From NCBI GenBank assembly GCA_046563655.1, contig CM102283.1, forward strand, positions 4,526,001 to 4,590,000: a DNA stretch of 64,000 nt, read 5' to 3'. The translations under genes and the position numbers were made by a program. Of this stretch, positions 1 through 49,100 are shown in pieces. The DNA comes from Yuukianura sp. NJ FZ-2021. Its lineage: Eukaryota. The stretch's first letter is position 1. Every line of letters begins with the position of its first letter. Under the pieces are notes generated by a model, which was not told the origin of the DNA, did no database searches, and saw only the letters and a program-made list of their open reading frames with translations.

Positions 1-57
1 ATTACTTAGTTAAATTCTAATTCGAAAAGTGTGCAAATAAAGTGTCCCCACCCTCTG

Positions 58-6281: not shown

Positions 6282-6311
6282 CGAATTTTCTATACAAAAA
6301 TTTCACTACTT

Positions 6312-6415: not shown

Positions 6416-6419
6416 GAGT

Positions 6420-23200: not shown

Positions 23201-26200
23201 TTGAAATTAGATATGCTTTGGAACAGCTGTTTTATTAAAACCCGCTTGCATTTGGACAAAAAGTAAAGCGGATTTTTTTCCAAAATTTCTGAGTGCGACC
23301 ACTAGATTCTAAGGCTATACAGACACATCTAAGTCCATTCTAACGGTATTGTACAATGGTGTTTGATATGCCGCCTTCTATTTTAGGAATAGTTTCGCCT
23401 GTGTTTTAAGTTGAAGTTAGATATGCTTTGGAACAACTATTTTATTAAAACCCGCTTGCATTTGGACAAAGAGTAAAGCGGATTTTTTTTCAAAATTTCT
23501 GAGTGCGACCACTAGATTCTAAGGCTATACAGACACAGCTAAGTCCATTCTAACGGTATTGTACAATGGTGTTTGATATGCCGCCTTCTATTTTAGGAAT
23601 AGTTTCGCTTGTGTTTTAAGTTGAAATTAAATATGCTTTGGAACAGCTATTTTATTAAAACCCGCTTGCATTTGGACAAAGAGTAAAGCGGATTTTTTTT
23701 TCAAAATTTCTGAGTGCGACCACTAAATTCTAACGCTATACAGACACATCTAAGTCCATTCTAACGGTATTATACAATGGTGTTTGATATGCCGCCTTCT
23801 ATTTTAGGAATAGTTTCGCTTGTGTTTTAAGTTGAAATTAAATATGCTTTGGAACAGCTATTTTATCAAAACCCGCTTGCATTTGGACAAAGAGTAAAGC
23901 GGATTTTTTTTTCAAAATTTCTGAGTGCCACCACTAAATTCTAACGCTATACAGACACATCTAAGTCCATTCTAACGGTATTGTACAATGGTGTTTGATA
24001 TGCCGCCTTCTATTTTAGGAATAGTTTCGCTTGTGTTTTAAGTTGAAATTAGATATGCTTTGGAACAGCTATTTTATTAAAACCCGCTTGCATTTGGACA
24101 AAGAGTAAAGCGGATTTTTTTCCAAAATTTCTGAGTGCGACCACTAGATTCTAAGGCTATACAGACACAGCTAAGTCCATTCTAACGGTATTGTACAATG
24201 GTGTTTGATCTGCCGCCTTCTATTTTAGGAATAGTTTCGCTTGTGTTTTAAGTTGAAATTAGATATGCTTTGGAACAGCTATTTTATTAAAACCCGCTTG
24301 CATTTGGACAAAGAGTAAAGCGGATTTTTTTTCAAAATTTCTGAGTGCGACCACTAGATTCTAAGGCTATACAGACACATCTCATTCCATTCTAACGCTA
24401 TTATACAATGGTGTTTGATATGCCGCCTTTTAGTTTCAGAACAGTTTCGCCTGTGTTTTAAGTTGAAATTAGATATGCTTTGGAACAGCTATTTTATTAA
24501 AACCCGCTTGCATTTGGACAAAGAGTAAAGCGGATTTTTTTTTTCAAAATTTCTGAGTGCGACCACTAAATTCTAAGGCTATACAGACACATCTCATTCC
24601 ATTCTAACGCTATTATACAATGGTGTTTGATATGCCGCCTTCTATTTTAGGAATAGTTTCGCTTGTGTTTTAAGTTGAAATTAAATATGCTTTGGAACAG
24701 CTATTTTATTAAAACCCGCTTGCATTTGGACAAAGAGTAAAGCGGATTTTTTTCCAAATTTCTGAGTGCGACCACTAAATTCTAACGCTATACAGACACA
24801 TCTAAGTCCATTCTAACGGTATTGTACAATGGTGTTTGATATGCCGCCTTCTATTTTAGGAATAGTTTCGCTTGTGTTTTAAGTTGAAATTAGATATGCT
24901 TTGGAACAGCTATTTTATTAAAACCCGCTTGCATTTGGACAAAGAGTAAAGCGGATTTTTTTCCAAAATTTCTGAGTGCGACCACTAGATTCTAAGGCTA
25001 TACAGACACAGCTAAGTCCATTCTAACGGTATTGTACAATGGTGTTTGATATGCCGCCTTCTATTTTAGGAATAGTTTCGCTTGTGTTTTAAGTTGAAAT
25101 TAGATATGCTTTGGAACAGCTATTTTATTAAAACCCGCTTGCATTTGGACAAAGAGTAAAGCGGATTTTTTCACAAAATTTCTGAGTGCGACCACTAGAT
25201 TCTAAGGCTATACAGACACATCTCATTCCATTCTAACGCTATTATACAATGGTGTTTGATATGCCGCCTTTTAGTTTCAGAACAGTTTCGCCTGTGTTTT
25301 AAGTTGAAATTAGATATGCTTTGGAACAGCTATTTTATTAAAACCCGCTTGCATTTGGACAAAGAGTAAAGCAGATTTTTTTTTCAAAATTTCTGAGTGC
25401 GACCACTAAATTCTAAGGCTATACAGACACATCTCATTCCATTCTAACGCTATTATACAATGGTGTTTGATATGCCGCCTTCTATTTTAGGAATAGTTTC
25501 GCTTGTGTTTTAAGTTGAAATTAAATATGCTTTGGAACAGCTATTTTATTAAAACCCGCTTGCATTTGGACAAAGAGTAAAGCGGATTTTTTTTTCAAAA
25601 TTTCTGAGTGCGACCACTAAATTCTAACGCTATACAGACACATCTAAGTCCATTCTAACGGTATTGTACAATGGTGTTTGATATGCCGCCTTCTATTTTA
25701 GGAATAGTTTCGCTTGTGTTTTAAGTTGAAATTAGATATGCTTTGGAACAGCTATTTTATTAAAACCCGCTTGCATTTGGACAAAGAGTAAAGCGGATTT
25801 TTTTCCAAAATTTCTGAGTGCGACCACTAGATTCTAAGGCTATACAGACACAGCTAAGTCCATTCTAACGGTATTGTACAATGGTGTTTGATATGCCGCC
25901 TTCTATTTTAGGAATAGTTTCGCTTGTGTTTTAAGTTGAAATTAGATATGCTTTGGAACAGCTATTTTATTAAAACCCGCTTGCATTTGGACAAAGAGTA
26001 AAGCGGTTTTTTTTCAAAATTTCTGAGTGCGACCACTAGATTCTAAGGCTATACAGACACATCTCATTCCATTCTAACGCTATTATACAATGGTGTTTGA
26101 TATGCCGCCTTTTAGTTTCAGAACAGTTTCGCCTGTGTTTTAAGTTGAAATTAGATATGCTTTGGAACAGCTATTTTATTAAAACCCGCTTGCATTTGGA

Positions 26201-29200
26201 CAAAGAGTAAAGCAGATTTTTTTTTCAAAATTTCTGAGTGCGACCACTAAATTCTAAGGCTATACAGACACATCTCATTCCATTCTAACGCTATTATACA
26301 ATGGTGTTTGATATGCCGCCTTTTAGTTTAGGAACAGTTTCGGCTGTGTTTTAAGTTGAAATTAGATATGCTTTGGAACAGCTGTTTTATTAAAACCCGC
26401 TTGCATTTGGACAAAAAGTAAAGCGGATTTTTTTCCAAAATTTCTGAGTGCGACCACTAGATTCTAAGGCTATACAGACACATCTAAGTCCATTCTAACG
26501 GTATTATTCAATGGTGTTTGATATGCCGCCTTCTATTTTAGGAATATTTTCGCTTGTGTTTTAAGTTGAAATTAAATATGCTTTGGAACAGCTATTTTAT
26601 TAAAACCCGCTTGCATTTGGACAAAGAGTAAAGCGGATTTTTTTTCAAAATTTCTGAGTGCGACCACTAAATTCTAAGGCTATACAGACACATCTAAGTC
26701 CATTCTAACGGTATTGTACAATGGTGTTTGATATGCCGCCTTCTATTTTAGGAATAGTTTCGCTTGTGTTTTAAGTTTAAATTAGATATGCTTTGGAACA
26801 GCTATTTTATTAAAACCCGCTTGCATTTGGACAAAGAGTAAAGCAGATTTTTTTTTCAAAATTTCTGAGTGCGACCACTAAATTCTAAGGCTATACAGAC
26901 ACATCTCATTCCATTCTAACGCTATTATACAATGGTGTTTGATATGCCGCCTTTTAGTTTAGGAACAGTTTCGGCTGTGTTTTAAGTTGAAATTAGATAT
27001 GCTTTGGAACAGCTGTTTTATTAAAACCCGCTTGCATTTGGACAAAAAGTAAAGCGGATTTTTTTCCAAAATTTCTGAGTGCGACCACTAGATTCTAAGG
27101 CTATACAGACACATCTAAGTCCATTCTAACGGTATTATTCAATGGTGTTTGATATGCCGCCTTCTATTTTAGGAATATTTTCGCTTGTGTTTTAAGTTGA
27201 AATTAAATATGCTTTGGAACAGCTATTTTATTAAAACCCGCTTGCATTTGGACAAAGAGTAAAGCGGATTTTTTTTCAAAATTTCTGAGTGCGACCACTA
27301 AATTCTAAGGCTATACAGACACATCTAAGTCCATTCTAACGGTATTGTACAATGGTGTTTGATATGCCGCCTTCTATTTTAGGAATAGTTTCGCTTGTGT
27401 TTTAAGTTGAAATTAGATATGCTTTGCAACAGCTATTTTATTAAAACCCGCTTGTATTTGGACAACGAGTAAAGCGGATTTTTTTTCAAAATTTCTGAGT
27501 GCGACCACTAAATACTAAGGCTATACAGACACATCTCATTCCATTCTAACGCTATTATACAATGGTGTTTGATATGCCGCCTTCTATTTTAGGAATAGTT
27601 TCGCTTGTGTTTTAAGTTGAAATTAAATATGCTTTGGAACAGCTATTTTATTAAAACCCGCTTGCATTTGGACAAAGAGTAAAGCGGATTTTTTTCAAAA
27701 TTTCTGAGTGCGACCACTAAATTCTAACGCTATACAGACACATCTAAGTCCATTCTAACGGTATTGTACAATGGTGTTTGATATGCCGCCTTCTATTTTA
27801 GGAATAGTTTCGCTTGTGTTTTAAGTTGAAATTAGATATGCTTTGGAACAGCTATTTTATTAAAACCCGCTTGCATTTGGACAAAGAGTAAAGCGGATTT
27901 TTTTCCAAAATTTCTGAGTGCGACCACTAGATTCTAAGGCTATACAGACACAGCTAAGTCCATTCTAACGGTATTGTACAATGGTGTTTGATATGCCGCC
28001 TTCTATTTTAGGAATAGTTTCGCTTGTGTTTTAAGTTGAAATTAGATATGCTTTGGAACAGCTATTTTATTAAAACCCGCTTGCATTTGGACAAAGAGTA
28101 AAGCGGATTTTTTTCAAAATTTCTGAGTGCGACCACTAGATTCTAAGGCTATACAGACACATCTCATTCCATTCTAACGCTATTATACAATGGTGTTTGA
28201 TATGCCGCCTTTTAGTTTCAGAACAGTTTCGCCTGTGTTTTAAGTTGAAATTAGATATGCTTTGGAACAGCTATTTTATTAAAACCCGCTTGCATTTGGA
28301 CAAAGAGTAAAGCAGATTTTCTTCAAAATTTCTGAGTGCGACCACTAAATTCTAAGGCTATACAGACACATCTCATTCCATTCTAACGCTATTATACAAT
28401 GGTGTTTGATATGCCGCCTTTTAGTTTAGGAACAGTTTCGGCTGTGTTTTAAGTTGAAATTAGATATGCTTTGGAACAGCTGTTTTATTAAAACCCGCTT
28501 GCATTTGGACAAAAAGTAAAGCGGATTTTTTTCCAAAATTTCTGAGTGCGACCACTAGATTCTAAGGCTATACAGACACATCTAAGTCCATTCTAACGGT
28601 ATTATTCAATGGTGTTTGATATGCCGCCTTCTATTTTAGGAATATTTTCGCTTGTGTTTTAAGTTGAAATTAAATATGCTTTGGAACAGCTATTTTATTA
28701 AAACCCGCTTGCATTTGGACAAAGAGTAAAGCGGATTTTTTTTCAAAATTTCTGAGTGCGACCACTAAATTCTAAGGCTATACAGACACATCTAAGTCCA
28801 TTCTAACGGTATTGTACAATGGTGTTTGATATGCCGCCTTCTATTTTAGGAATAGTTTCGCTTGTGTTTTAAGTTGAAATTAGATATGCTTTGCAACAGC
28901 TATTTTATTAAAACCCGCTTGTATTTGGACAACGAGTAAAGCGGATTTTTTTTCAAAATTTCTGAGTGCGACCACTAAATACTAAGGCTATACAGACACA
29001 TCTCATTCCATTCTAACGCTATTATACAATGGTGTTTGATATGTCGCCTTTTAGTTTAGGAACAGTTTCGCCTGTGTTTTAAGTTGAAATTAGATATGCT
29101 TTGGAACAGCTATTTTATTAAAACCCGCTCGCATTTGGACAAAGAGTAAAGCGGATTTTTTTCCAAAATTTCTGAGTGCGACCACTAGATTCTAAGGCTA

Positions 29201-29520
29201 TACAGACACATCTCATTCCATTCTAACGCTATTATACAATAGTGTTTGATATGCCGCCTTTTAGTTTCAGAATAGTTTCGCTTGTGTTTTAAGTTTAAAT
29301 TAGATATGCTTTGGAACAGCTATTTTATTAAAATCCGCTTGCATTTGGACAAAGAGTAAAGCGGATTTTTTTTTCAAAATTTCTGAGTGCGACCACTAGA
29401 TTCTAAGGCTATACAGACACATCTAAGTCCATTCTAACGCTATTTTACAATGGTGTATGATATGCCGCCTTTTAGTTTAGGAATAGTTTCGCTTGTGTTT
29501 TAAGTTGAAATTAGATATGC

Positions 29521-29695
29521 TGTTACGGTTGGTAATGGAGAAGAGAGATGAGCTCAGTTGAGTGGGCTGGGATCGAGTGATCCCATGTCTTTATTGTTAG
29601 GTGCTTTTATACCTGTGAGTGAAGACTCTACAGAGGTGTTGGGTGACGTCAGCCGTGGCATGACGTTAGCCTTTAACCGTCCTACATACCTAACA
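29521..29695 (-). repeat. 3' LTR of copy 1 (175 bp)
   Basis: Appears identical to 32138-32312; TG...CA with 5-bp inverted ends. Confidence 0.93.
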
Positions 29696-32124
29696 CATCT
29701 ACACTATGGAAAAGATCGTCCTCGATCGTAGTTAGTGGAACATAAGGTATACAAAATAAGTGGGAAAGTAAATACTAATCATGAATAATGAAGTAAGTTG
29801 AAATAAAGCATTGAAAAACAATTAAGTAATAGAATAACAAAACAGTTATACTCGGTAAACTCAGAAAGTATAGCCAACGGTAAAGGGTGCTAATTTTCCA
29901 AAATATTTAGGCAAAACTGTATAACTAGGTTTTTCCCTTTGGAAAGCTTGGATTTGGGTAATATATGGTCACACGTAAGTTAGAAAATTGGGACCTTGTA
30001 ACAGATCTTGTGAAAGTTGTTTTCGGTAATGGGTATGGCCGGGTTCTACGTCCTTGAGGTGCATAATACTTATGATTATGGTGATTGAGAACTGTGACGC
30101 GTATGTGGTCAGAAAACGTATCCTTTACCACTGATCTTCCGGGGCATACTGACTTGAAACCGGACGGCCTTTTCGAGTGCTGCATAGTTCGTTGTTTGTG
30201 CTGAGAAGCTTGGGTGGATTAGACACGAGCGGCTGACGAGTTGCGTAAATTCAAGAGACAGTATTGGACACCAACTTGCATTTGCGCTTGGGTTCCTCAA
30301 TAAACGTAGAGGGATATCCAGGGCAGTACGCGAAGAAAAAAAACGGTATATTCTTGATCAAGTTCAGGAATAAGTAGATTCTTGAAACGATTAATGAAAG
30401 AATGAGGGAGTTAGTGGTGGTATGTTTGGTTTAGGGCATGGTTCAGCATGGGGCAGAAGGGTATGGACTACGTGATCGATTCTTAATAGTGTGGGTTGTT
30501 CAATGTGTGTGTTATCAGTCAACAACACGTTCGGTGGTGGGTACCCGGCGGCCGCCTTTCGAATTTGTAGTTTTGTGTCACCTGACTACGTGCATTGCGA
30601 GCTCGCTAGCTTCGATAAGATTTGACCATGGCTATTCGTGACTGAATACAAAGTCTAACAAACTGAATTAACATTTGGTACGAAGCGCTTCCATACATTA
30701 ATATATTGACAAGTTTAACTCGGGCGCCCGGCTACTATAAATTTGTTTTCATTGAAATGACGCTGCAAAGTATTCCGTTTGCGCAAAGGACAGCGTAACA
30801 ATATGTTTTTTTCTTCAATGAAATGACGTCTTCAAGATACTTGTTTGATTCATTCGGTGACGTCACTATAAGTTTTCACGTGTTAAGTAAATGACTTCTT
30901 GACAATATTTTCTTTGCAATAAAGTGACATCTTCGATATATTTAGTTTATTCAGCTGGAGACGTCATGATGAGTTTTCATTGGTTTAGTGAAAGACGTCT
31001 TTTCAATATATTTTTTTGAATGAGCTGACGTCTTCAAGATATTCTGAGTAAATTATGTTGAAAATATTTTCTTTTCAATAAAGTGACGTCTTCGATATAT
31101 TTAATTTCTTCAGCCGGTGACGTCATGATGATTTTACATTGGTTCAGTGAAAGACGTCTTCTCAATATATTTTCTTGAATGAACTGACGTCGTCAAAATA
31201 TTCTGTTTGAGTAAATTATGTCTTCACAATATTTTCTTTTCAATAAAGTGACGTCTTCGATATATTTAATTTCTTCAGCTGGTGACGTCATGAGTTTTCA
31301 TGGGTTTGGTAAAAGACGTCTTCACAATATATTCTGTGACGTCTGCATAATATTATTCAACTCATTTCAATTCGTTCCAAATTTCTTAAGTAGGTGACAG
31401 CAGTATAAGGTTCGTTTCTAGTGACTGACGTATGAAAAATATCCTTTTGCTTCAGTGGGTGATGTCATGATGAGTTGTTGTATTGTTCTAACATCACGCC
31501 ATTGTGTAATTGTATTAAATGCTTGGCCTACAGTCAACCACCATTATAAGGGTAAGTGTTGGGCTTACATCATCCCCCATATAAATAATTGGCGTGTGGG
31601 GTAGTGAGCTGTGAGGGGGGAGGGGTGCAGTGGGTTGATGGCAGTGGGCGATATTTGCTGTATACAAATTAAAAGTTAAAAGTACAGTCTTTAGCAAAGT
31701 GTGATTATGGATTTAACGGGTTGGCGAATCCGGTGTCCTTGTATAGTCACAAGTTTCATATTAGGAATAATTGTAAAATTGTGGGCAGGGAAATCAATGC
31801 AAACCTGGACATGTCGTTTGGGTAGCGTGTTTTCGCTGGTCAACTGTGAAATAGCGACGCGATTAGGGAGAGGGACTTATTCTTCTGTAGAATATACGTG
31901 CGCTAGGGGTTTACGTGGACGGAGCAGTACCCTTGTGATAGGCCTTGCACTTTGCGAAGTGGGGGGGGGAGGGACGAAGGGTATTGGGGGCCTCCCTGGT
32001 ATGCGAAGGAACGCCGTGCATAGGGGTCTGCGCTTTGAAGCGAATGTCTTGGACACCAGTGCAATGGGGTATACGGGGGCTCAAGCTCCCTCCATAGTGA
32101 GAACAGAGGTGGGGAATCAACCTG

Positions 32125-32136
32125 CCTCTGCTACCA
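32125..32136 (-). promoter_or_regulatory. Primer binding site complementary to the metazoan initiator tRNA-Met 3' end
   Basis: The minus strand reads TGGTAGCAGAGG one nt after the LTR, complementary to ...CCUCUGCUACCA-3'. Same in copies 2 and 3. Confidence 0.85.
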
Positions 32137-32137
32137 C

Positions 32138-32312
32138 TGTTACGGTTGGTAATGGAGAAGAGAGATGAGCTCAGTTGAGTGGGCTGGGATCGAGTGATCC
32201 CATGTCTTTATTGTTAGGTGCTTTTATACCTGTGAGTGAAGACTCTACAGAGGTGTTGGGTGACGTCAGCCGTGGCATGACGTTAGCCTTTAACCGTCCT
32301 ACATACCTAACA
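32138..32312 (-). repeat. 5' LTR of copy 1 (175 bp) with TATA box and poly(A) signal
   Basis: Minus-strand TATAAAAG (32221-32228) followed by AATAAA (32207-32212); also contains TGACGTCA. Confidence 0.9.
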
Positions 32313-34628
32313 ATGCTTTGGAACAGCTATTTTATTAAAACCCGCTTGCATTTGGACAAAGAGTAAAGCGGATTTTTTTTCAAAATTTCTGAGTGCGACC
32401 ACTAGATTCTAAGGCTATACAGACACATCTAATTTCATTCTAACGGTATTGTACAATGGTGTTTGATATGCCGCCTTCTATTTTAGGAATAGTTTCGCTT
32501 GTGTTTTAAGTTGAAATTAGATATGCTTTGCAACAGCTATTTTATTAAAACCCGCTTGTATTTGGACAACGAGTAAAGCGGATTTTTTTTCAAAATTTCT
32601 GAGTGCGACCACTAAATACTAAGGCTATACAGACACATCTCATTCCATTCTAACGCTATTATACAATGGTGTTTGATATGTCGCCTTTTAGTTTAGGAAC
32701 AGTTTCGCCTGTGTTTTAAGTTGAAATTAGATATGCTTTGGAACAGCTATTTTATTAAAACCCGCTCGCATTTGGACAATGAGTAAAGCGGATTTTTTTT
32801 CAAAATTTCTGAGTGCGACCACTAGATTCTAAGGCTATACAGACACATCTCATTCCATTCTAACGCTATTATACAATGGTGTTTGATATGCCGCCTTTTA
32901 GTTTCAGAACAGTTTCGCCTGTGTTTTAAGTTGAAATTAGATATGCTTTGGAACAGCTATTTTCTTAAAACCCGCTTGCATTTGGACAAAGAGTAAAGCA
33001 GATTTTTTTTTCAAAATTTCTGAGTGCGACCACTAAATTCTAAGGCTATACAGACACATCTAAGTCCATTCTAACGCTATTATACAATGGTGTTTGATAT
33101 GCCGCCTTTTAGTTTAGGAACAGTTTCGGCTGTGTTTTAAGTTGAAATTAGATATGCTTTGGAACAGCTGTTTTATTAAAACCCGCTTGCATTTGGACAA
33201 AAAGTAAAGCGGATTTTTTTCCAAAATTTCTGAGTGCGACCACTAGATTCTAAGGCTATACAGACACATCTAAGTCCATTCTAACGGTATTATACAATGG
33301 TGTTTGATATGTCGCCTTTTAGTTTAGGAACAGTTTCGCCTGTGTTTTAAGTTGAAATTAGATATGCTTTGGAACAGCTATTTTATTAAAACCCGCTCGC
33401 ATTTGGACAAAGAGTAAAGCGGATTTTTTTCCAAAATTTCTGAGTGCGACCACTAGATTCTAAGGCTATACAGACACATCTCATTCCATTCTAACGCTAT
33501 TATACAATGGTGTTTGATATGCCGCCTTTTAGTTTCAGAACAGTTTCGCCTGTGTTTTAAGTTGAAATTAGATATGCTTTGGAACAGCTATTTTATTAAA
33601 ACCCGCTTGCATTTGGACAAGGAGTAAAGCAGATTTTTTTTTCAAAATTTCTGAGTGCGACCACTAAATTCTAAGGCTATACAGACACATCTAAGTCCAT
33701 TCTAACGCTATTATACAATGGTGTTTGATATGCCGCCTTTTAGTTTAGGAACAGTTTCGGCTGTGTTTTAAGTTGAAATTAGATATGCTTTGGAACAGCT
33801 GTTTTATTAAAACCCGCTTGCATTTGGACAAAAAGTAAAGCGGATTTTTTTCCAAAATTTCTGAGTGCGACCACTAAATTCTAAGGCTATACAGACACAT
33901 CTAATTCCATTCTAACGGTATTGTACAATGGTGTTTGATATGCCGCCTTCTATTTTAGGAATAGTTTCGCTTGTGTTTTAAGTTGAAATTAAATATGCTT
34001 TGGAACAGCTATTTTATTAAAACCCGCTTGCATTTGGACAAAGAGTAAAGCGGATTTTTTTCCAAAATTTCTGAGTGCGACCACTAAATTCTAAGGCTAT
34101 ACAGACACATCTAAGTCCATTCTAACGGTATTGTACAATGGTGTTTGATATGCCGCCTTCTATTTTAGGAATAGTTTCGCTTGTGCTTTAAGTTGAAATT
34201 AGATATGCTTTGGAACAGCTATTTTATTAAAACCCGCTTGCATTTGGACAAAGAGTAAAGCGGATTTTTTTCCAAAATTTCTGAGTGCGACCACTAGATT
34301 CTAAGGCTATACAGACACAGCTAAGTCCATTCTAACGGTATTGTACAATGGTGTTTGATATGCCGCCTTCTATTTTAGGAATAGTTTCGCTTGTGTTTTA
34401 AGTTGAAATTAGATATGCTTTGGAACAGCTATTTTATTAAAACCCGCTTTCATTTGGACAAAAAGTAAAGCGGATTTTTTTCCAAAATTTCTGAGTGCGA
34501 CCACTAGATTCTAAGGCTATACAGACACATCTAAGTCCATTCTAACGGTATTGTACAATGGTGTTTGATATGCCGCCTTCTATTTTAGGAATAGTTTCGC
34601 TTGTGTTTTAAGTTGAAATTAGATATGC

Positions 34629-37431
34629 TGTTACGGTTGGTAATGGAGAAGAGAGATGAGCTCAGTTGAGTGGGCTGGGATCGAGTGATCCCATGTCTTT
34701 ATTGTTAGGTGCTTTTATACCTGTGAGTGAAGACTCTACAGAGGTGTTGGGTGACGTCAGCCGTGGCATGACGTTAGCCTTTAACCGTCCTACATACCTA
34801 ACACATCTACACTATGGAAAAGATCGTCCTCGATCGTAGTTAGTGGAACATAAAGTATACAAAATACGTGGGAAAGTAAATACTAATCATGAATAATGAA
34901 GTAAGTTGAAATAAAGCATTGAAAAACAATTAAGTAATAGAATAACAAAACAGTTATACTCGGTAAACTCAGAAAGTATAGCCAACGGTAAAGGGTGCTA
35001 ATTTTCCAAAATATTTAGGCAAAACTGTATAACTAGGTTTTTCCCTTTGGAAAGCTTGGATTTGGGTAATATATGGTCACACGTAAGTTAGAAAATTGGG
35101 ACCTTGTAACAGATCTTGTGAAAGTTGTTTTCGGTAATGGGTATGGCCGGGTTCTACGTCCTTGAGGTGCATAATACTTATGATTATGGTGATTGAGAAC
35201 TGTGACGCGTATGTGGTCAGAAAACGTATCCTTTACCACTGATCTTCCGGGGCATACTGACTTGAAACCGGACGGCCTTTTCGAGTGCTGCATAGTTCGT
35301 TGTTTGTGCTGAGAAGCTTGGGTGGATTAGACACGAGCGGCTGACGAGTTGCGTAAATTCAAGAGACAGTATTGGACACCAACTTGCATTTGCGCTTGGG
35401 TTCCTCAATAAACGTAGAGGGATATCCAGGGCAGTACGCGAAGAAAAAAAACGGTATATTCTTGATCAAGTTCAGGAATAAGTAGATTCTTGAAACGATT
35501 AATGAAAGAATGAGGGAGTTAGTGGTGGTATGTTTGGTTTAGGGCATGGTTCAGCATGGGGCAGAAGGGTATGGACTACGTGATCGATTCTTAATAGTGT
35601 GGGTTGTTCAATGTGTGTGTTATCAGTCAACAACACGTTCGGTGGTGGGTACCCGGCGGCCGCCTTTCGAATTTGTAGTTTTGTGTCACCTGACTACGTG
35701 CATTGCGAGCTCGCTAGCTTCGATAAGATTTGACCATGGCTATTCGTGACTGAATACAAAGTCTAACAAACTGAATTAACATTTGGTACGAAGCGCTTCC
35801 ATACATTAATATATTGACAAGTTTAACTCGGGCGCCCGGCTACTATAAATTTGTTTTCATTGAAATGACGCTGCAAAGTATTCCGTTTGCGCAAAGGACA
35901 GCGTAACAATATTTTTTTTTTCTTCAATGAAATGACGTCTTCAAGATACTTGTTTGATTCATTCGGTGACGTCACTATAAGTTTTCACGTGTTAAGTAAA
36001 TGACTTCTTGACAATATTTTCTTTGCAATAAAGTGACATCTTCGATATATTTAGTTTCTTCAGCTGGAGACGTCATGATGAGTTTTCATTGGTTTAGTGA
36101 AAGACGTCTTTTCAATATATTTTTTTGAATGAGCTGACGTCTTCAAGATATTCTGTCTGAGTAAATTATGTCTTGAAAATATTTTCTTTTCAATAAAGTG
36201 ACGTCTTCGATATATTTAATTTCTTCAGCCGGTGACGTCATGATGATTTTACATTGGTTCAGTGAAAGACGTCTTCTCAATATATTTTCTTGAATGAACT
36301 GACGTCGTCAAAATATTCTGTTTGAGTAAATTATGTCTTCACAATATTTTCTTTTCAATAAAGTGACGTCTTCGATATATTTAATTTCTTCAGCTGGTGA
36401 CGTCATGATGAGTTTTCATGGGTTTGGTAAAAGACGTCTTCACAATATATTCTGTGACGTCTGCATAATATTATTCAACTCATTTCAATTCGTTCCAAAT
36501 TTCTTAAGTAGGTGACAGCAGTATAAGGTTCGTTTCTAGTGACTGACGTATGAAAAATATCCTTTTGCTTCAGTGGGTGATGTCATGATGAGTTGTTGTA
36601 TTGTTCTAACATCACGCCATTGTGTAATTGTGTTCAATGCTTGGCCTACAGTCAACCACCATTATAAGGGTAAGTGTTGGGCTTACATCATCCCCCATAT
36701 AAATAATTGGCGTGTGGGGTAGTGAGCTGTGAGGGGAGGGGGGTGCAGTGGGTTGATGGCAGTGGGCGATATTTGCTGTATACAAATTAAAAGTTAAAAG
36801 TACAGTCTTTAGCAAAGTGTGATTATGGATTTAACGGGTTGGCGAATCCGGTGTCCTTGTATAGTCACAAGTTTCATATTAGGAATAATTGTAAAATTGT
36901 GGGCAGGGAAATCAATGCAAACCTGGACATGTCGTTTGGGTAGCGTGTTTTCGCTGGTCAACTGTGAAATAGCGACGCGATTAGGGAGAGGGACTTATTC
37001 TTCTGTAGAATATACGTGCGCTAGGGGTTTACGTGGACGGAGCAGTACCCTTGTGATAGGCCTTGCACTTTGCGAAGTGGGGGGGGGGAGGGACGAAGGG
37101 TATTGGGGGCCTCCCTGGTATGCGAAGGAACGCCGTGCATAGGGGTCTGCGCTTTGAAGCGAATGTCTTGGACACCAGTGCAATGGGGTATACGGGGGCT
37201 CAAGCTCACTCCATAGTGAGAACAGAGGTGGGGAATCAACCTGCCTCTGCTACCACTGTTACGGTTGGTAATGGAGAAGAGAGATGAGCTCAGTTGAGTG
37301 GGCTGGGATCGAGTGATCCCATGTCTTTATTGTTAGGTGCTTTTATACCTGTGAGTGAAGACTCTACAGAGGTGTTGGGTGACGTCAGCCGTGGCATGAC
37401 GTTAGCCTTTAACCGTCCTACATACCTAACA
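34629..37431 (-). mobile_element. Non-autonomous LTR retrotransposon, copy 2, 2803 bp
   Basis: LTRs at 34629-34803 and 37257-37431; ATGC TSD; same internal sequence and PBS as copy 1. Confidence 0.93.
35930..36460. repeat. Internal 165-bp tandem repeat (~3 copies) rich in GACGTC, present in all three LTR elements
   Basis: CAATAAAGTGAC recurs at 36026, 36191 and 36356. Confidence 0.85.
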
Positions 37432-40379
37432 ATGCTTTGGAACAGCTATTTTATTAAAACCCGCTTGCATTTGGACAAAGAGTAAAGCGGATTTTTTTTC
37501 AAAATTTCTGAGTGCGACCACTAGATTCTAAGGCTATACAGACACATCTAATTTCATTCTAACGGTATTGTACAATGGTGTTTGATATGCCGCCTTCTAT
37601 TTTAGGAATAGTTTCGCTTGTGTTTTAAGTTGAAATTAGATATGCTTTGCAACAGCTATTTTATTAAAACCCGCTTGTATTTGGACAACGAGTAAAGCGG
37701 ATTTTTTTTCAAAATTTCTGAGTGCGACCACTAAATACTAAGGCTATACAGACACATCTCATTCCATTCTAACGCTATTATACAATGGTGTTTGATATGT
37801 CGCCTTTTAGTTTAGGAACAGTTTCGCCTGTGTTTTAAGTTGAAATTAGATATGCTTTGGAACAGCTATTTTATTAAAACCCGCTCGCATTTGGACAAAG
37901 AGTAAAGCGGATTTTTTTCCAAAATTTCTGAGTGCGACCACTAGATTCTAAGGCTATACAGACACATCTCATTCCATTCTAACGCTATTATACAATGGTG
38001 TTTGATATGCCGCCTTTTAGTTTCAGAACAGTTTCGCCTGTGTTTTAAGTTGAAATTAGATATGCTTTGGAACAGCTATTTTATTAAAACCCGCTTGCAT
38101 TTGGACAAAGAGTAAAGCAGATTTTTTTTTCAAAATTTCTGAGTGCGACCACTAAATTCTAAGGCTATACAGACACATCTAAGTCCATTCTAACGCTATT
38201 ATACAATGGTGTTTGATATGCCGCCTTTTAGTTTAGGAACAGTTTCGGCTGTGTTTTAAGTTGAAATTAGATATGCTTTGGAACAGCTGTTTTATTAAAA
38301 CCCGCTTGCATTTGGACAAAAAGTAAAGCGGATTTTTTTCCAAAATTTCTGAGTGCGACCACTAGATTCTAAGGCTATACAGACACATCTAAGTCCATTC
38401 TAACGGTATTATACAATGGTGTTTGATATGTCGCCTTTTAGTTTAGGAACAGTTTCGCCTGTGTTTTAAGTTGAAATTAGATATGCTTTGGAACAGCTAT
38501 TTTATTAAAACCCGCTTGCATTTGGACAATTAGTAAAGCGGATTTTTTTTTCAAAATTTCTGAGTGCGACCACTAAATTCTAAGGCTATACAGACACATC
38601 TCATTCCATTCTAACGCTATTATACAATGGTGTTTGATATGTCGCCTTTTAGTTTAGGAACAGTTTCGCCTGTGTTTTAAGTTGAAATTAGATATGCTTT
38701 GGAACAGCTATTTTATTAAAACCCGCTTGCATTTGGACAAAGAGTAAAGCAGATTTTTTTTTCAAAATTTCTGAGTGCGACCACTAAATTCTAAGGCTAT
38801 ACAGACACATCTAAGTCCATTCTAACGCTATTATACAATGGTGTTTGATATGCCGCCTTCTATTTTAGGAACAGCTTCGCCTGTGTTTTAAGTTGAAACG
38901 AGATATGCTTTGGAACAGCTATTTTATTAAAACCCGCTTGCATTTGGACAAAAAGTAAAGCGGATTTTTTCCCAAAATTTCTGAGTGCGACCACTAGATT
39001 CTAAGGCTATACAGACACATCTAAGTCCATTCTAACGGTATTATACAATGGTGTTTGATATGTCGCCTTTTAGTTTAGGAACAGTTTCGCCTGTGTTTTA
39101 AGTTGAAATTAGATATGCTTTGGAACAGCTATTTTATTAAAACCCGCTTGCATTTGGACAAAGAGTAAAGCGGATTTTTTTCCAAAATTTCTGAGTGCGA
39201 CCACTAGATTCTAAGGCTATACAGACACATCTAAGTCCATTCTAACGGTATTATACAATGGTGTTTGATATGCCGCCTTTTAGTTTAGGAACAGTTTCGC
39301 CTGTGTTTTAAGTTGAAATTAGATATGCTTTGGAACAGCTATTTTATTAAAACCCGCTTGCATTTGGACAAAGAGTAAAGCGGATTTTTTTTTCAAAATT
39401 TCTGAGTGCGACCACTAAATTCTAAGGCTATACAGACACATCTAAGTCCATTCTAACGCTATTATACAATGGTGTTTGATATGTCGCCTTTTAGTTTAGG
39501 AACAGTTTCGCTTGTGTTTTAAGTTGAAATTAGATATGTTTGGAACAGCTATTTTATTAAAACCCGCTTGCATTTGGACAAAGAGTAAAGCGGATTTTTT
39601 TCCAAAATTTCTGAGTGCGACCACTAAATTCTAAGGCTATACAGACACATCTAAGTCCATTCTAACGGTATTGTACAATGGTGTTTGATATGCCGCCTTC
39701 TATTTTAGGAATAGTTTCGCTTGTGTTTTAAGTTGAAATTAGATATGCTTTGGAACAGCTATTTTATTAAAACCCGCTTGCATTTGGACAAAGAGTAAAG
39801 CGGATTTTTTTTTCAAAATTTCTGAGTGCGACCACTAGATTCTAAGGCTATACAGACACATCTAAGTCCATTCTAACGGTATTGTACAATGGTGTTTGAT
39901 ATGCCGCCTTCTATTTTAGGAATAGTTTCGCTTGTGTTTTAAGTTGAAATTAGATATGCTTTGGAACAGCTATTTTATTAAAACCCGCTTGCATTTGGAC
40001 AAAGAGTAAAGCGGATTTTTTTCCAAAATTTCTGAGTGCGACCACTAGATTCTAAGGCTATACAGACACAGCTAAGTCCATTCTAACGGTATTGTACAAT
40101 GGTGTTTGATATGCCGCCTTCTATTTTAGGAATAGTTTCGCTTGTGTTTTAAGTTGAAATTAGATATGCTTTGGAACAGCTATTTTATTAAAACCCGCTT
40201 TCATTTGGACAAAAAGTAAAGCGGATTTTTTTCCAAAATTTCTGAGTGCGACCACTAGATTCTAAGGCTATACAGACACATCTAAGTCCATTCTAACGGT
40301 ATTGTACAATGGTGTTTGATATGCCGCCTTCTATTTTAGGAATAGTTTCGCTTGTGTTTTAAGTTGAAATTAGATATGC

Positions 40380-43178
40380 TGTTACGGTTGGTAATGGAGA
40401 AGAGAGATGAGCTCAGTTGAGTGGGCTGGGATCGAGTGATCCCATGTCTTTATTGTTAGGTGCTTTTATACCTGTGAGTGAAGACTCTACAGAGGTGTTG
40501 GGTGACGTCAGCCGTGGCATGACGTTAGCCTTTAACCGTCCTACATACCTAACACATCTACACTATGGAAAAGATCGTCCTCGATCGTAGTTAGTGGAAC
40601 ATAAAGTATACAAAATACGTGGGAAAGTAAATACTAATCATGAATAATGAAGTAAGTTGAAATAAAGCATTGAAAAACAATTAAGTAATAGAATAACAAA
40701 ACAGTTATACTCGGTAAACTCAGAAAGTATAGCCAACGGTAAAGGGTGCTAATTTTCCAAAATATTTAGGCAAAACTGTATAACTAGGTTTTTCCCTTTG
40801 GAAAGCTTGGATTTGGGTAATATATGGTCACACGTAAGTTAGAAAATTGGGACCTTGTAACAGATCTTGTGAAAGTTGTTTTCGGTAATGGGTATGGCCG
40901 GGTTCTACGTCCTTGAGGTGCATAATACTTATGATTATGGTGATTGAGAACTGTGACGCGTATGTGGTCAGAAAACGTATCCTTTACCACTGATCTTCCG
41001 GGGCATACTGACTTGAAACCGGACGGCCTTTTCGAGTGCTGCATAGTTCGTTGTTTGTGCTGAGAAGCTTGGGTGGATTAGACACGAGCGGCTGACGAGT
41101 TGCGTAAATTCAAGAGACAGTATTGGACACCAACTTGCATTTGCGCTTGGGTTCCTCAATAAACGTAGAGGGATATCCAGGGCAGTACGCGAAGAAAAAA
41201 AACGGTATATTCTTGATCAAGTTCAGGAATAAGTAGATTCTTGAAACGATTAATGAAAGAATGAGGGAGTTAGTGGTGGTATGTTTGGTTTAGGGCATGG
41301 TTCAGCATGGGGCAGAAGGGTATGGACTACGTGATCGATTCTTAATAGTGTGGGTTGTTCAATGTGTGTGTTATCAGTCAACAACACGTTCGGTGGTGGG
41401 TACCCGGCGGCCGCCTTTCGAATTTGTAGTTTTGTGTCACCTGACTACGTGCATTGCGAGCTCGCTAGCTTCGATAAGATTTGACCATGGCTATTCGTGA
41501 CTGAATACAAAGTCTAACAAACTGAATTAACATTTGGTACGAAGCGCTTCCATACATTAATATATTGACAAGTTTAACTCGGGCGCCCGGCTACTATAAA
41601 TTTGTTTTCATTGAAATGACGCTGCAAAGTATTCCGTTTGCGCAAAGGACAGCGTAACAATATTTTTTCTTCAATGAAATGACGTCTTCAAGATACTTGT
41701 TTGATTCATTCGGTGACGTCACTATAAGTTTTCACGTGTTAAGTAAATGACTTCTTGACAATATTTTCTTTGCAATAAAGTGACATCTTCGATATATTTA
41801 GTTTCTTCAGCTGGAGACGTCATGATGAGTTTTCATTGGTTTAGTGAAAGACGTCTTTTCAATATATTTTTTTGAATGAGCTGACGTCTTCAAGATATTC
41901 TGTCTGAGTAAATTATGTCTTGAAAATATTTTCTTTTCAATAAAGTGACGTCTTCGATATATTTAATTTCTTCAGCCGGTGACGTCATGATGATTTTACA
42001 TTGGTTCAGTGAAAGACGTCTTCTCAATATATTTTCTTGAATGAACTGACGTCGTCAAAATATTCTGTTTGAGTAAATTATGTCTTCACAATATTTTCTT
42101 TTCAATAAAGTGACGTCTTCGATATATTTAATTTCTTCAGCTGGTGACGTCATGATGAGTTTTCATGGGTTTGGTAAAAGACGTCTTCACAATATATTCT
42201 GTGACGTCTGCATAATATTATTCAACTCATTTCAATTCGTTCCAAATTTCTTAAGTAGGTGACAGCAGTATAAGGTTCGTTTCTAGTGACTGACGTATGA
42301 AAAATATCCTTTTGCTTCAGTGGGTGATGTCATGATGAGTTGTTGTATTGTTCTAACATCACGCCATTGTGTAATTGTGTTCAATGCTTGGCCTACAGTC
42401 AACCACCATTATAAGGGTAAGTGTTGGGCTTACATCATCCCCCATATAAATAATTGGCGTGTGGGGTAGTGAGCTGTGAGGGGGGAGGGGTGCAGTGGGT
42501 TGATGGCAGTGGGCGATATTTGCTGTATACAAATTAAAAGTTAAAAGTACAGTCTTTAGCAAAGTGTGATTATGGATTTAACGGGTTGGCGAATCCGGTG
42601 TCCTTGTATAGTCACAAGTTTCATATTAGGAATAATTGTAAAATTGTGGGCAGGGAAATCAATGCAAACCTGGACATGTCGTTTGGGTAGCGTGTTTTCG
42701 CTGGTCAACTGTGAAATAGCGACGCGATTAGGGAGAGGGACTTATTCTTCTGTAGAATATACGTGCGCTAGGGGTTTACGTGGACGGAGCAGTACCCTTG
42801 TGATAGGCCTTGCACTTTGCGAAGTGGGGGGGGGGAGGGACGAAGGGTATTGGGGGCCTCCCTGGTATGCGAAGGAACGCCGTGCATAGGGGTCTGCGCT
42901 TTGAAGCGAATGTCTTGGACACCAGTGCAATGGGGTATACGGGGGCTCAAGCTCACTCCATAGTGAGAACAGAGGTGGGGAATCAACCTGCCTCTGCTAC
43001 CACTGTTACGGTTGGTAATGGAGAAGAGAGATGAGCTCAGTTGAGTGGGCTGGGATCGAGTGATCCCATGTCTTTATTGTTAGGTGCTTTTATACCTGTG
43101 AGTGAAGACTCTACAGAGGTGTTGGGTGACGTCAGCCGTGGCATGACGTTAGCCTTTAACCGTCCTACATACCTAACA
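40380..43178 (-). mobile_element. Non-autonomous LTR retrotransposon, copy 3, 2799 bp
   Basis: LTRs at 40380-40554 and 43004-43178; ATGC TSD; nearly identical to copy 2. Confidence 0.93.
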
Positions 43179-46100
43179 ATGCTTTGGAACAGCTATTTTA
43201 TTAAAACCCGCTTGCATTTGGACAAAGAGTAAAGCGGATTTTTTCAAAATTTCTGAGTGCGACCACTAGATTCTAAGGCTATACAGACACATCTAATTCC
43301 ATTCTAACGGTATTGTACAATGGTGTTTGATATGCCGCCTTCTATTTTAGGAATAGTTTCGCTTGTGTTTTAAGTTGAAATTAGATATGCTTTGGAACAG
43401 CTATTTTATTAAAACCCGCTTGCATTTGGACAAAGAGTAAAGCGGATTTTTTTTTTCAAAATTTCTGAGTGCGACCACTAAATTCTAAGGCTATACAGAC
43501 ACATCTCATTCCATTCTAACGGTATTGTACAATGGTGTTTGATATGTCGCCTTTTAGTTTAGGAACAGTTTCGCCTGTGTTTTAAGTTGAAATTAGATAT
43601 GCTTTGGAACAGCTATTTTATTAAAACCCGCTTGCATTTGGACAAAGAGTAAAGCGGATTTTTTTCCAAAATTTCTGAGTGCGACCACTAGATTCTAAGG
43701 CTATACAGACACATCTCATTCCATTCTAACGGTATTATACAATGGTGTTTGATATGCCGCCTTTTAGTTTCAGAACAGTTTCGCCTGTGTTTTAAGTTGA
43801 AATTAGATATGCTTTGGAACAGCTATTTTATTAAAACCCGCTTGCATTTGGACAAAGAGTAAAGCGGATTTTTTTCCAAAATTTCTGAGTGCGACCACTA
43901 GATTCTAAGGCTATACAGACACATCTAAGTCCATTCTAACGCTATTATACAATGGTGTTTGATATGCCGCCTTTTAGTTTAGGAACAGTTTCGCCTGTGT
44001 TTTAAGTTGAAATTATATATGCTTTGGAACAGCTATTTTATTAAAACCCGCTTGCATTTGGACAAAGAGTAAAGCGGATTTTTTTCCAAAATTTCTGAGT
44101 GCGACCACTAGATTCTAAGGCTATACAGACACATCTAAGTCCATTCTAACGGTATTATACAATGGTGTTTGATATGCCGCTTTTTAGTTTAGGAACAGTT
44201 TCGCTTGTGTTTTAAGTTGAAATTAGATATGCTTTGGAACAGCTATTTTATTAAAACCCGCTTGCATTTGGACAAAGAGTAAAGCGGATTTTTTTCCAAA
44301 ATTTCTGAGTGCGACCACTAGATTCTAAGGCTATACAGACACATCTAAGTCCATTCTAACGGTATTATACAATGGTGTTTGATATGCCGCCTTTTAGTTT
44401 AGGAACAGTTTCGCCTGTGTTTTAAGTTGAAATTAGATATGCTTTGGAACAGCTATTTTATTAAAACCCGCTTGCATTTGGACAAAGAGTAAAGCGGATT
44501 TTTTTCAAAATTTCTGAGTGCGACCACTAGATTCTAAGGCTATACAGACACATCTCATTCCATTCTAACGCTATTATACAATGGTGTTTGATATGCCGCC
44601 TTTTAGTTTAGGAACAGTTTCGCCTGTGTTTTAAGTTGAAATTAGATATGCTTTGGAACAGCTATTTTATTAAAACCCGCTTGCATTTGGACAAAGAGTA
44701 AAGCGGATTTTTTTCCAAAATTTCTGAGTGCGACCACTAGATTCTAAGGCTATACAGACACATCTAAGTCCATTCTAACGGTATTGTACAATGGTGTTTG
44801 ATATGTCGCCTTTTAGTTTAGGAATAGTTTCGCTTGTGTTTTAAGTTGAAATTAGATATGCTTTGGAACAGCTATTTTATTAAAACCCGCTTGCATTTGG
44901 ACAAAGAGTAAAGCGGATTTTTTTCAAAATTTCTGAGTGCGACCACTAAATTCTAAGGCTATACAGACACATCTAAGTCCATTCTAACGCTATTATACAA
45001 TGGTGTTTGATATGCCGCCTTCTATTTTAGGAATAGTTTCGCTTGTGTTTTAAGTTGAAATTAGATATGCTTTGGAACAGCTATTTTATTAAAACCCGCT
45101 TGCATTTGGACAAAGAGTAAAGCGGATTTTTTTCCAAAATTTCTGAGTGCGACCACTAGATTCTAAGGCTATACAGACACATCTAAGTCCATTCTAACGG
45201 TATTGTACAATGGTGTTTGATATGTCGCCTTTTAGTTTAGGAACAGTTTCGCCTGTGTTTTAAGTTGAAATTATATATGCTTTGGAACAGCTATTTTATT
45301 AAAACCCGCTTGCATTTGGACAAAGAGTAAAGCGGATTTTTTTCCAAAATTTCTGAGTGCGACCACTAGATTCTAAGGCTATACAGACACATCTAAGTCC
45401 ATTCTAACGGTATTGTACAATGGTGTTTGATATGCCGCCTTCTATTTTAGGAATAGTTTCGCTTGTGTTTTAAGTTGAAATTAGATATGCTTTGGAACAG
45501 CTATTTTATTAAAACCCGCTTGCATTTGGACAAAGAGTAAAGCGGATTTTTTTTCAAAATTTCTGAGTGCGACCACTAGATTCTAAGGCTATACAGACAC
45601 ATCTAAGTCCATTCTAACGGTATTGTACAATGGTGTTTGATATGCCGCCTTCTATTTTAGGAATAGTTTCGCTTGTGTTTTAAGTTGAAATTAGATATGC
45701 TTTGGAACAGCTATTTTATTAAAACCCGCTTGCATTTGGACAAAGAGTAAAGCGGATTTTTTTTTCAAAATTTCTGAGTGCGACCACTAGATTCTAAGGC
45801 TATACAGACACATCTAAGTCCATTCTAACGGTATTGTACAATGGTGTTTGATATGCCGCCTTCTATTTTAGGAATAGTTTCGCTTGTGTTTTAAGTTGAA
45901 ATTAGATATGCTTTGGAACAGCTATTTTATTAAAACCCGCTTGCATTTGGACAAAGAGTAAAGCGGATTTTTTTCCAAAATTTCTGAGTGCGACCACTAG
46001 ATTCTAAGGCTATACAGACACATCTAAGTCCATTCTAACGGTATTGTACAATGGTGTTTGATATGCCGCCTTCTATTTTAGGAATAGTTTCGCTTGTGTT

Positions 46101-49100
46101 TTAAGTTGAAATTAGATATGCTTTGGAACAGCTATTTTATTAAAACCCGCTTGCATTTGGACAAAGAGTAAAGCGGATTTTTTTTTCAAAATTTCTGAGT
46201 GCGACCACTAGATTCTAAGGCTATACAGACACATCTAAGTCCATTCTAACGGTATTGTACAATGGTGTTTGATATGCCGCCTTCTATTTTAGGAATAGTT
46301 TCGCCTGTGTTTTAAGTTGAAGTTAGATATGCTTTGGAACAGCTATTTTATTAAAACCCGCTTGCATTTGGACAAAGAGTAAAGCGGATTTTTTTTTCAA
46401 AATTTCTGAGTGCGACCACTAGATTCTAAGGCTATACAGACACATCTAAGTCCATTCTAACGGTATTGTACAATGGTGTTTGATATGCCGCCTTCTATTT
46501 TAGGAATAGTTTCGCTTGTGTTTTAAGTTGAAATTAGATATGCTTTGGAACAGCTATTTTATTAAAACCCGCTTGCATTTGGACAAAGAGTAAAGCGGAT
46601 TTTTTTTTTCAAAATTTCTGAGTGCGACCACTAGATTCTAAGGCTATACAGACACATCTAAGTCCATTCTAACGGTATTGTACAATGGTGTTTGATATGC
46701 CGCCTTCTATTTTAGGAATAGTTTCGCTTGTGTTTTAAGTTGAAATTAGATATGCTTTGGAACAGCTATTTTATTAAAACCCGCTTGCATTTGGACAAAG
46801 AGTAAAGCGGATTTTTTTTTCAAAATTTCTGAGTGCGACCACTAGATTCTAAGGCTATACAGACACATCTAAGTCCATTCTAACGGTATTGTACAATGGT
46901 GTTTGATATGCCGCCTTCTATTTTAGGAATAGTTTCGCTTGTGTTTTAAGTTGAAATTAGATATGCTTTGGAACAGCTATTTTATTAAAACCCGCTTGCA
47001 TTTGGACAAAGAGTAAAGCGGATTTTTTTCCAAAATTTCTGAGTGCGACCACTAGATTCTAAGGCTATACAGACACATCTAAGTCCATTCTAACGGTATT
47101 GTACAATGGTGTTTGATATGCCGCCTTCTATTTTAGGAATAGTTTCGCTTGTGTTTTAAGTTGAAATTAGATATGCTTTGGAACAGCTATTTTATTAAAA
47201 CCCGCTTGCATTTGGACAAAGAGTAAAGCGGATTTTTTTCCAAAATTTCTGAGTGCGACCACTAGATTCTAAGGCTATACAGACACATCTAAGTCCATTC
47301 TAACGGTATTGTACAATGGTGTTTGATATGCCGCCTTCTATTTTAGGAATAGTTTCGCTTGTGTTTTAAGTTGAAATTAGATATGCTTTGGAACAGCTAT
47401 TTTATTAAAACCCGCTTGCATTTGGACAAAGAGTAAAGCGGATTTTTTTCCAAAATTTCTGAGTGCGACCACTAGATTCTAAGGCTATACAGACACATCT
47501 AAGTCCATTCTAACGGTATTGTACAATGGTGTTTGATATGCCGCCTTCTATTTTAGGAATAGTTTCGCTTGTGTTTTAAGTTGAAATTAGATATGCTTTG
47601 GAACAGCTATTTTATTAAAACCCGCTTGCATTTGGACAAAGAGTAAAGCGGATTTTTTTCCAAAATTTCTGAGTGCGACCACTAGATTCTAAGGCTATAC
47701 AGACACATCTAAGTCCATTCTAACGGTATTGTACAATGGTGTTTGATATGCCGCCTTCTATTTTAGGAATAGTTTCGCTTGTGTTTTAAGTTGAAATTAG
47801 ATATGCTTTGGAACAGCTATTTTATTAAAACCCGCTTGCATTTGGACAAAAAGTAAAGCGGATTTTTTTCCAAAATTTCTGAGTGCGACCACTAGATTCT
47901 AAGGCTATACAGACACATCTAAGTCCATTCTAACGGTATTGTACAATGGTGTTTGATATGCCGCCTTCTATTTTAGGAATAGTTTCGCTTGTGTTTTAAG
48001 TTGAAATTAGATATGCTTTGGAACAGCTATTTTATTAAAACCCGCTTGCATTTGGACAAAGAGTAAAGCGGATTTTTTTTTCAAAATTTCTGAGTGCGAC
48101 CACTAGATTCTAAGGCTATACAGACACATCTAAGTCCATTCTAACGGTATTGTACAATGGTGTTTGATATGCCGCCTTCTATTTTAGGAATAGTTTCGCT
48201 TGTGTTTTAAGTTGAAATTAGATATGCTTTGGAACAGCTATTTTATTAAAACCCGCTTGCATTTGGACAAAGAGTAAAGCGGATTTTTTTTTCAAAATTT
48301 CTGAGTGCGACCACTAGATTCTAAGGCTATACAGACACATCTAAGTCCATTCTAACGGTATTGTACAATGGTGTTTGATATGCCGCCTTCTATTTTAGGA
48401 ATAGTTTCGCTTGTGTTTTAAGTTGAAATTAGATATGCTTTGGAACAGCTATTTTATTAAAACCCGCTTGCATTTGGACAAAGAGTAAAGCGGATTTTTT
48501 TCAAAATTTCTGAGTGCGACCACTAGATTCTAAGGCTATACAGACACATCTAATTCCATTCTAACGGTATTGTACAATGGTGTTTGATATGCCGCCTTCT
48601 ATTTTAGGAATAGTTTCGCTTGTGTTTTAAGTTGAAATTAGATATGCTTTGGAACAGCTATTTTATTAAAACCCGCTTGCATTTGGACAAAGAGTAAAGC
48701 GGATTTTTTTACAAAATTTCTGAGTGCGACCACTAAATTCTAAGGCTATACAGACACATCTAAGTCCATTCTAACGGTATTGTACAATGGTGTTTGATAT
48801 GCCGCCTTCTATTTTAGGAATAGTTTCGCTTGTGTTTTAAGTTGAAATTAGATATGCTTTGGAACAGCTATTTTATTAAAACCCGCTTGCATTTGGACAA
48901 AGAGTAAAGCGGATTTTTTTTTCAAAATTTCTGAGTGCGACCACTAGATTCTAAGGCTATACAGACACATCTAAGTCCATTCTAACGGTATTGTACAATG
49001 GTGTTTGATATGCCGCCTTCTATTTTAGGAATAGTTTCGCTTGTGTTTTAAGTTGAAATTAGATATGCTTTGGAACAGCTATTTTATTAAAACCCGCTTG

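Follow-up and report, generated by a model that had tools for sequence, protein, structure and literature searches.

Three copies of a non-coding Gypsy-type LTR retrotransposon in a springtail satellite array probably descend from one insertion

Results

The 64,000-nt stretch of the Yuukianura sp. NJ FZ-2021 assembly analysed here (hereafter the window) spans positions 4,526,001-4,590,000 of contig CM102283.1 (C1) in a 98.7-Mb, 22-contig genome and contains three copies of a non-coding long terminal repeat (LTR) element within an array of a 210-bp satellite. As the original prediction proposed, the element is a real, young, non-autonomous Gypsy-type LTR retrotransposon family. We consider it likely, with good confidence, that its three copies (numbered 1 to 3 by position) reflect one integration into the array, after which the element and its neighbouring monomers were copied by array recombination. 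The original prediction had favoured targeting of one base of the monomer, against which speak the flanks that the copies share, their clustering, and the presence of other family copies at other sites with other target-site duplications (TSDs). Its main alternative, the duplication of one insertion, fits the diagnostic flanks held in common, the tight clustering, and the CATG and GTAC copies found in an unrelated satellite.

The coordinates and flanks bore out the description of the three copies as interrupting the same monomer base in the same orientation, with ATGC flanking each copy on either side. Independent, uniform insertions would share base and strand with a chance of 1/420 per extra copy, but this argument does not carry because the three copies are not independent. 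The right flanks of copies 1 and 2 agree at 1047/1050 bp, and the left flanks of copies 2 and 3 agree at 424/424 bp. We typed the monomers of the array (720 units, 713 of them scored after exclusion of 7 odd-length monomers) and found the variant 36T in 2/713 scored monomers, both to the left of copies 2 and 3, while a haplotype carrying only 121T and 123T was likewise present in 2/713, both to the right of copies 1 and 2. The interiors of copies 2 and 3 differ at 2/2449 sites, compared with 6/2439 (~0.25%) plus small indels for copies 1 and 3. Since copy 2 joins the left side of copy 3 to the right side of copy 1, these sequences identify it almost certainly as a duplication product.

Copies 1 and 3 are also related through their right flanks, since the match between them was beaten by just 2/684 other array positions when three monomers were compared and by 1/677 when four were compared. 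All three copies lie within 25 of the ~720 monomers (if events fall uniformly, P = 0.0035 for three and 0.068 for two), and no other family copies were found within the C1 array by the LTR search and array survey. The identity of their LTRs is compatible with the 6/2439 split between copies 1 and 3 (P = 0.42). Taken together, these data indicate that at most two insertions, and probably one, lie behind the three copies, with a single original insertion being very probable on the sequence comparisons.

Several observations weigh against this conclusion. The left flanks of copies 1 and 3 are unrelated, with 572/684 positions scoring equally high, and the monomer to the left of copy 1, which we examined for a crossover, does not have a distinctive signature in that 40/261 comparable monomers look alike. 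For one substitution and one 4-bp indel, the states of copies 1 and 3 are each seen in different outside copies, which is what separate source copies would produce. The null used for the flank comparisons is not position-independent, neighbouring monomers being related, and copy 2 may be a mis-assembled duplication.

The history that we propose would start with a non-coding Gypsy-type element, whose anatomy is described below, that presumably owed its mobility to a coding Gypsy element acting in trans. The only parts retained would be those needed in cis, namely the LTR promoter and poly(A) signal, a primer-binding site (PBS) for priming by initiator methionine tRNA (tRNA-iMet), a polypurine tract (PPT), and the ends recognised by integrase. 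A single integration into the 210-bp array would have generated the 4-bp ATGC TSD, and blocks composed of the element and adjoining monomers would then have been copied via unequal exchange or conversion, the process of satellite turnover. An older duplication would have produced copies 1 and 3 and a recent one copy 2. Because the copies would derive from duplication, their shared base, strand, and TSD would be inherited rather than targeted.

The genome-wide mapping of the LTR that the original prediction suggested yielded at least 12 matches, and the 12/12 recorded belong to six non-coding copies (three on C1, two on C12, and one on C11) that represent three independent insertions. The C11 and C12 copies also have two direct LTRs with TG...CA ends. 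The C12 copies lie 26 kb apart, and their shared TSD (CATG) and near-identical flanks (1500/1500 bp on the right, 997/999 bp on the left) lead us to read them as one insertion duplicated within the array; 1/41 empty sites in this array has an equally identical right flank. The C11 copy has the TSD GTAC. Both insertions are in a composite 155/242/544-bp satellite, whose unit they enter at different positions, and this satellite has no significant similarity to the 210-bp monomer (best E = 0.13). As the three independent insertions each occupy a different site and are spread over two satellite families, base-specific targeting is not supported. The original prediction had named two findings that would count against it, namely other copies at random sites with varied TSDs and satellite-embedded copies that all share the same flanks on both sides. 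Other sites and varied TSDs were indeed found, but the sites are not random in that both are in satellites, and the left flank of copy 1 is unlike those of copies 2 and 3. We found no publication on this LTR family, nor any on satellite-embedded retroelements in springtails among titles and abstract openings.

Two other histories could place three copies at one base. Copies 1 and 3 could be independent insertions reflecting a local target preference of the integrase, with copy 2 arising by unequal crossing-over between them. The unrelated left flanks of copies 1 and 3 are in keeping with this history, as are their interior differences (6/2439 plus small indels), two states of which are common to other copies. 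Furthermore, all four TSDs of the family and its closest coding relative alternate purine and pyrimidine (ATGC, CATG, GTAC, and GTAC), and the monomer offers just 23 alternating 4-mers per strand, with 3 sites fitting a GWW+TSD pattern. However, this site pattern was drawn post hoc from four sites, the right flanks of copies 1 and 3 rank as related (top 1-2 of ~680 positions), and two events would have to fall by chance within 25 of 720 monomers, and we therefore regard two insertions as unlikely. It is far less credible that the integrase of a helper, meaning a coding element that mobilises the family, targets this monomer base by sequence and made three separate insertions. Although base, strand, and TSD are the same in 3/3 window copies, copy 2 has both flanks in common with its neighbours, the ~700 remaining monomers are without a copy, and the two other independent insertions have different TSDs and occupy satellite unlike the 210-bp monomer.

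The anatomy of the element agrees with the original prediction in each respect (Table 1). All six LTRs in the window (6/6) are 175 bp long and mutually identical, with TG...CA ends, and TATA-like and AATAAA motifs can be read off their sequence. The 18-nt PBS begins 1 base past the 5' LTR and matches the 3' end plus CCA of tRNA-Met(CAT) at 17/18 positions. This comparison was made by eye against two tRNA-Met(CAT) genes of the same genome, found by pattern, which we take to be initiators from the hallmarks A1:U72 and an AUCG T-loop. The PPT before the 3' LTR is non-canonical, with purines at 8/12 positions, and the coding relatives described below are similarly atypical. No intact coding capacity was apparent: the longest stop-free frame in copy 2, the sole copy translated, is 109 aa, and a tblastn search with related Gypsy proteins against three copies gave no match at E below 0.4 and thus no coding remnants in the interior. 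Family members from the window, C11, and C12 range in length from 2747 to 2838 bp.

Table 1. Positions of the element copies, their parts, the surrounding satellite, and the closest coding relative. Coordinates are those of the window unless a contig is given.
Feature	Location	Strand	Description
Element copy 1	29521..32312	minus	2792 bp; ATGC TSD at 29517-29520 and 32313-32316
Element copy 2	34629..37431	minus	2803 bp; left flank and interior like copy 3, right flank like copy 1
Element copy 3	40380..43178	minus	2799 bp
5' LTR of copy 1	32138..32312	minus	175 bp; equivalents 37257-37431 (copy 2), 43004-43178 (copy 3)
3' LTR of copy 1	29521..29695	minus	equivalents 34629-34803 (copy 2), 40380-40554 (copy 3)
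PBS of copy 1	32119..32136	minus	equivalents 37238-37255 (copy 2), 42985-43002 (copy 3)
PPT-like purine-enriched stretch of copy 1	29696..29725	minus	preceded by the motif GGACGATC, common to the coding Gypsy relative on C4
Internal tandem repeat of copy 1	30897..31333	.	unit 160-165 bp, ~2.7 copies; equivalents 36006-36451, 41753-42198
210-bp satellite	6506..64000	plus	part of array C1:4,456,179-4,662,320; ~720 monomers, many unrelated insertions
Satellite spacer 1	32313..34628	plus	11 monomers; start and end match spacer 2
Satellite spacer 2	37432..40379	plus	14 monomers
Coding Gypsy relative	C4:9,353,112-9,362,168		9.06 kb; gag-like, pol, env-like, and fourth open reading frame; closest relative with both LTRs

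Across the family, LTR identity coexists with diverged interiors. Between the independent copies, the interior differs at 58/2269 sites for C11 and at 205/2260 for C12 (up to 9%), yet a single base in one of the 12 family LTRs is all that departs from identity among them, the other 11/12 being the same. At the C12 interior rate, the probability of zero changes in 175 bp is 1.3e-7. The LTR is nevertheless able to change, since a contig from run X4 (another study; depth ~5, errors possible) has 3 LTR differences along with a fully matching PBS. The simplest reading, suggested by this contrast between LTRs and interiors, is that the LTR was recently replaced via template switching during reverse transcription, which predicts a helper bearing the same 175-bp LTR; strong selection on the short LTR is the alternative. 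RNA folding was dismissed as the cause of LTR conservation because its signal is just mildly above that of shuffles (z = -2.1, 4/200). LTR swapping is reportedly known in soybean. Reshuffling of LTR and interior modules by template switching has been described (PMC6894440, PMC13570524). As a lead only, in one 8558-nt contig of run X2 the first 30 nt come from the LTR and the remainder is other sequence that was not found in the assembly; runs X1-X3 may come from the assembly's own sample.

The autonomous partner that the original prediction expected, one with the same 175-bp LTR, was not found in the assembly when we searched with LTR, interior, PBS, and pre-LTR patterns, but relatives with the same PBS were. 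A genome search with the PBS junction gave 11 matches, of which 6 belong to the family and 5 do not. Of the coding relatives, the closest that has both LTRs is a Gypsy element on C4 whose pol contains reverse transcriptase, RNase H, and integrase by Pfam (10 Pfam families at E<=0.01). Its gag-like and env-like (729 aa) frames, which are without a Pfam match, were named by position and look, and its fourth frame encodes 245 aa. It lies inside a 336-bp satellite with the TSD GTAC. Its LTRs are unequal, at 127 and 119 bp with 90.6% identity, despite its open reading frames being open. Two partial relatives of this clade, on C4 and C12, have the first 11 LTR bases in common, and their readable end is not in satellite. 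The best named protein relatives of a linked Gypsy pol are mostly chelicerate.

The coding clade and the non-coding family resemble each other at defined positions. Clade LTRs start with TGTTAGG and finish with GTAACA, as in the non-coding family; the iMet PBS begins one base past the LTR in both clade copies having a 5' LTR; GGAC(G/A)ATC, which is shared with the non-coding family, precedes the 3' LTR in both clade copies having one; and the TSD is 4 bp and alternating in the copy with both ends. When the clade LTRs (119-127 bp) were compared with the 175-bp LTR, only the termini and core motifs were alike (global score 6 versus a shuffle mean of -47, standard deviation 10), and no interior homology was found between the non-coding family and the coding clade. 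Mobilisation in trans by Gypsy-type machinery is a sound inference from these features, and the coding clade members are relatives, short of a proven helper.

Other candidates were set aside. An element behind a look-alike LTR on C4 proved to be a BEL/Pao nested inside a broken Gypsy copy and was rejected as the partner. At this locus, from C4:9,424,387 onward, a BEL/Pao (439-bp LTRs, 5-bp TSD) and a Polinton are nested in an iMet-clade Gypsy element adjoining a 183-bp satellite. Matches to the iMet PBS on C1 and C9 were rejected as relatives because they have the PBS junction alone in common; the C9 match is followed by what we take to be a Copia-like gag.

We next considered whether the family has a preference for satellite chromatin. 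All independent family insertions (3/3) are deep in long satellite arrays, of the 210-bp satellite on C1 and the composite family on C11 and C12. As a proxy baseline, we used 32 of 98 Gypsy integrase matches outside the clade, which were picked down the list and are neither random nor age-matched; in 6/32, the 6 kb downstream include a tandem repeat of >=600 bp. The difference between 3/3 and 6/32 gives a Fisher p of 0.013, which rises to 0.050 once the C1 case, from which the finding arose, is left out; adding the three coding relatives gives 3/5 versus 6/32 (p = 0.08).

These counts raise the possibility that the helper integrase gives the family a preference for chromatin of the satellite or centromere type, whatever its sequence and beyond mere survival, which would be compatible with duplication of a single C1 insertion. 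That the two-LTR coding relative on C4 sits in a third satellite is consistent with such a preference. However, n is 2 after ascertainment, the two other iMet-clade members are outside satellites at their readable end, the C1 array is a general sink for transposable elements, and an enrichment of young LTR elements in arrays is seen throughout the eukaryotes (10.64898/2026.09.17.752431). Moreover, no chromodomain is among the 10 Pfam families of the C4 relative, an absence that holds for the relative and not necessarily for the helper, and the Y-x-L-R motif in its integrase tail is also present in Gypsy elements outside satellites. On balance, we regard a chromatin preference as possible but doubtful.

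A satellite-specific integrase tail was rejected because the Y-x-L-R motif is widespread among Gypsy elements here, occurring in 6/32 baseline elements, 4 away from satellites and 2 beside them. Most Gypsy integrase tails that we read end in a basic motif, either Y-x-L-R or RRSxRxRxxPxRY/F, and the latter, we presume, recalls the CENP-C motif. Basic integrase tails may act as general nucleosome tethers. The Y-x-L-R motif resembles the nucleosome-binding peptide GGYNLRPR of foamy-virus Gag (PMC12125541).

The C1 array hosts many other insertions. The 210-bp monomer matches listed (150 of 355) are all on C1, and other contigs bear other satellites. Inside the array are two Polintons, an insert resembling a short interspersed nuclear element, and three non-LTR elements, which make it a general sink for transposable elements, and it terminates at a further insertion. 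The array is stratified, with positions 6506-43178 of the window showing 3-4-monomer higher-order patterns and many variants, and positions 43179-64000 being near consensus, which suggests a recent homogenising expansion starting near copy 3.

The two Polinton/Maverick-type elements differ from each other. One, of 16.6 kb, spans C1:4,515,863-4,532,505 (window 1-6505) and the other, of 19.2 kb, C1:4,610,062-4,629,260; they have different termini and are 72-87% alike in patches, and their insertion points in the monomer coincide to within one base. Both host monomers are of the rare 9C/48C/93A/96A type (96A in 17/713), and the adjacent monomers differ. Unlike the LTR copies, the two Polinton insertions look independent and are thus the better candidate for a site preference in this array, with n = 2; no literature on a Polinton preference for a satellite site was among the matches listed. 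In positions 1-3290, the window Polinton is rearranged, with inverted duplications of a 2.5-kb terminal and a 4.7-kb internal segment, and its zinc-finger/A32-like packaging ATPase frame occurs in both orientations. Finally, a 581-bp fragment without a Pfam match (7687-8267) lies in the satellite, where the host monomer has lost a short segment; it is presumably the C-terminus of a putative restriction-endonuclease-type non-LTR retrotransposon.

Discussion

If the satellite bias and the LTR replacement both hold, the family would offer a handle on how a chromodomain-less animal Gypsy integrase targets satellite chromatin. The mechanism of such targeting is incompletely understood in any organism, according to the study of Tal1 (PMC11735389). 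A fuller scenario, in which an arthropod non-coding Gypsy parasite relies on a helper whose integrase homes to satellite chromatin irrespective of sequence, has its whole LTR refreshed by template switching, and is amplified passively with the array, is speculative and more doubtful than the chromatin preference on its own. Were it true, the family would be an animal counterpart of those plant centrophilic pairs, autonomous and non-autonomous, that swap LTRs.

Centrophilic retrotransposons include Tal1/ALE4 (PMC11735389) as well as CRM and Athila (named in 10.64898/2026.09.17.752431). Tal1 follows CENH3 via its integrase C-terminus, as shown by 10,000-100,000 de novo insertions (PMC11735389). 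The family described here is like Tal1 and CRM, as those sources present them, in that young copies are embedded in satellite arrays, but unlike Tal1 it is represented by three independent insertions known from sequence alone and its coding relative is without a chromodomain.

Among the non-autonomous LTR classes, TRIM elements (terminal-repeat retrotransposons in miniature) measure <1 kb, large retrotransposon derivatives (LARD) are >4 kb, and a class of 1.5-4 kb is unnamed (PMC13570524, PMC10886601). The element shares with the classes described there its two LTRs, PBS, PPT-like tract, and lack of coding capacity, while its 2.8-kb length is outside the limits of both a strict TRIM and a LARD and falls in the unnamed class. 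Its 4-bp TSD is like that reported for the Gypsy-dependent animal Helenus (PMC13570524). It is, however, not a Helenus, Ajax, Cassandra, or retrozyme, since an Rfam search of window positions 34400-37650 gave 0 matches at E<=1 (no tRNA, 5S, or ribozyme).

The copying of inserted elements by satellite turnover is an already known process. In the wasp Anoplius nigerrimus, five same-strand Gypsy-LTR copies with the same TSD in a satellite were attributed to one integration copied by host recombination, and post-integration copying in centromeric satellite was also reported for a long interspersed nuclear element in Porphyrio (11 copies) and a retrovirus in Cervus (6 copies) (10.64898/2026.09.17.752431). 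The window resembles the Anoplius case as outlined there in having several near-identical same-strand copies with an identical TSD in one satellite array. It differs in that the element is non-coding and in that flank haplotypes order the duplications, and its same-base pattern provides a small, clean example of how satellite turnover can copy an inserted element and mimic site-specific targeting.

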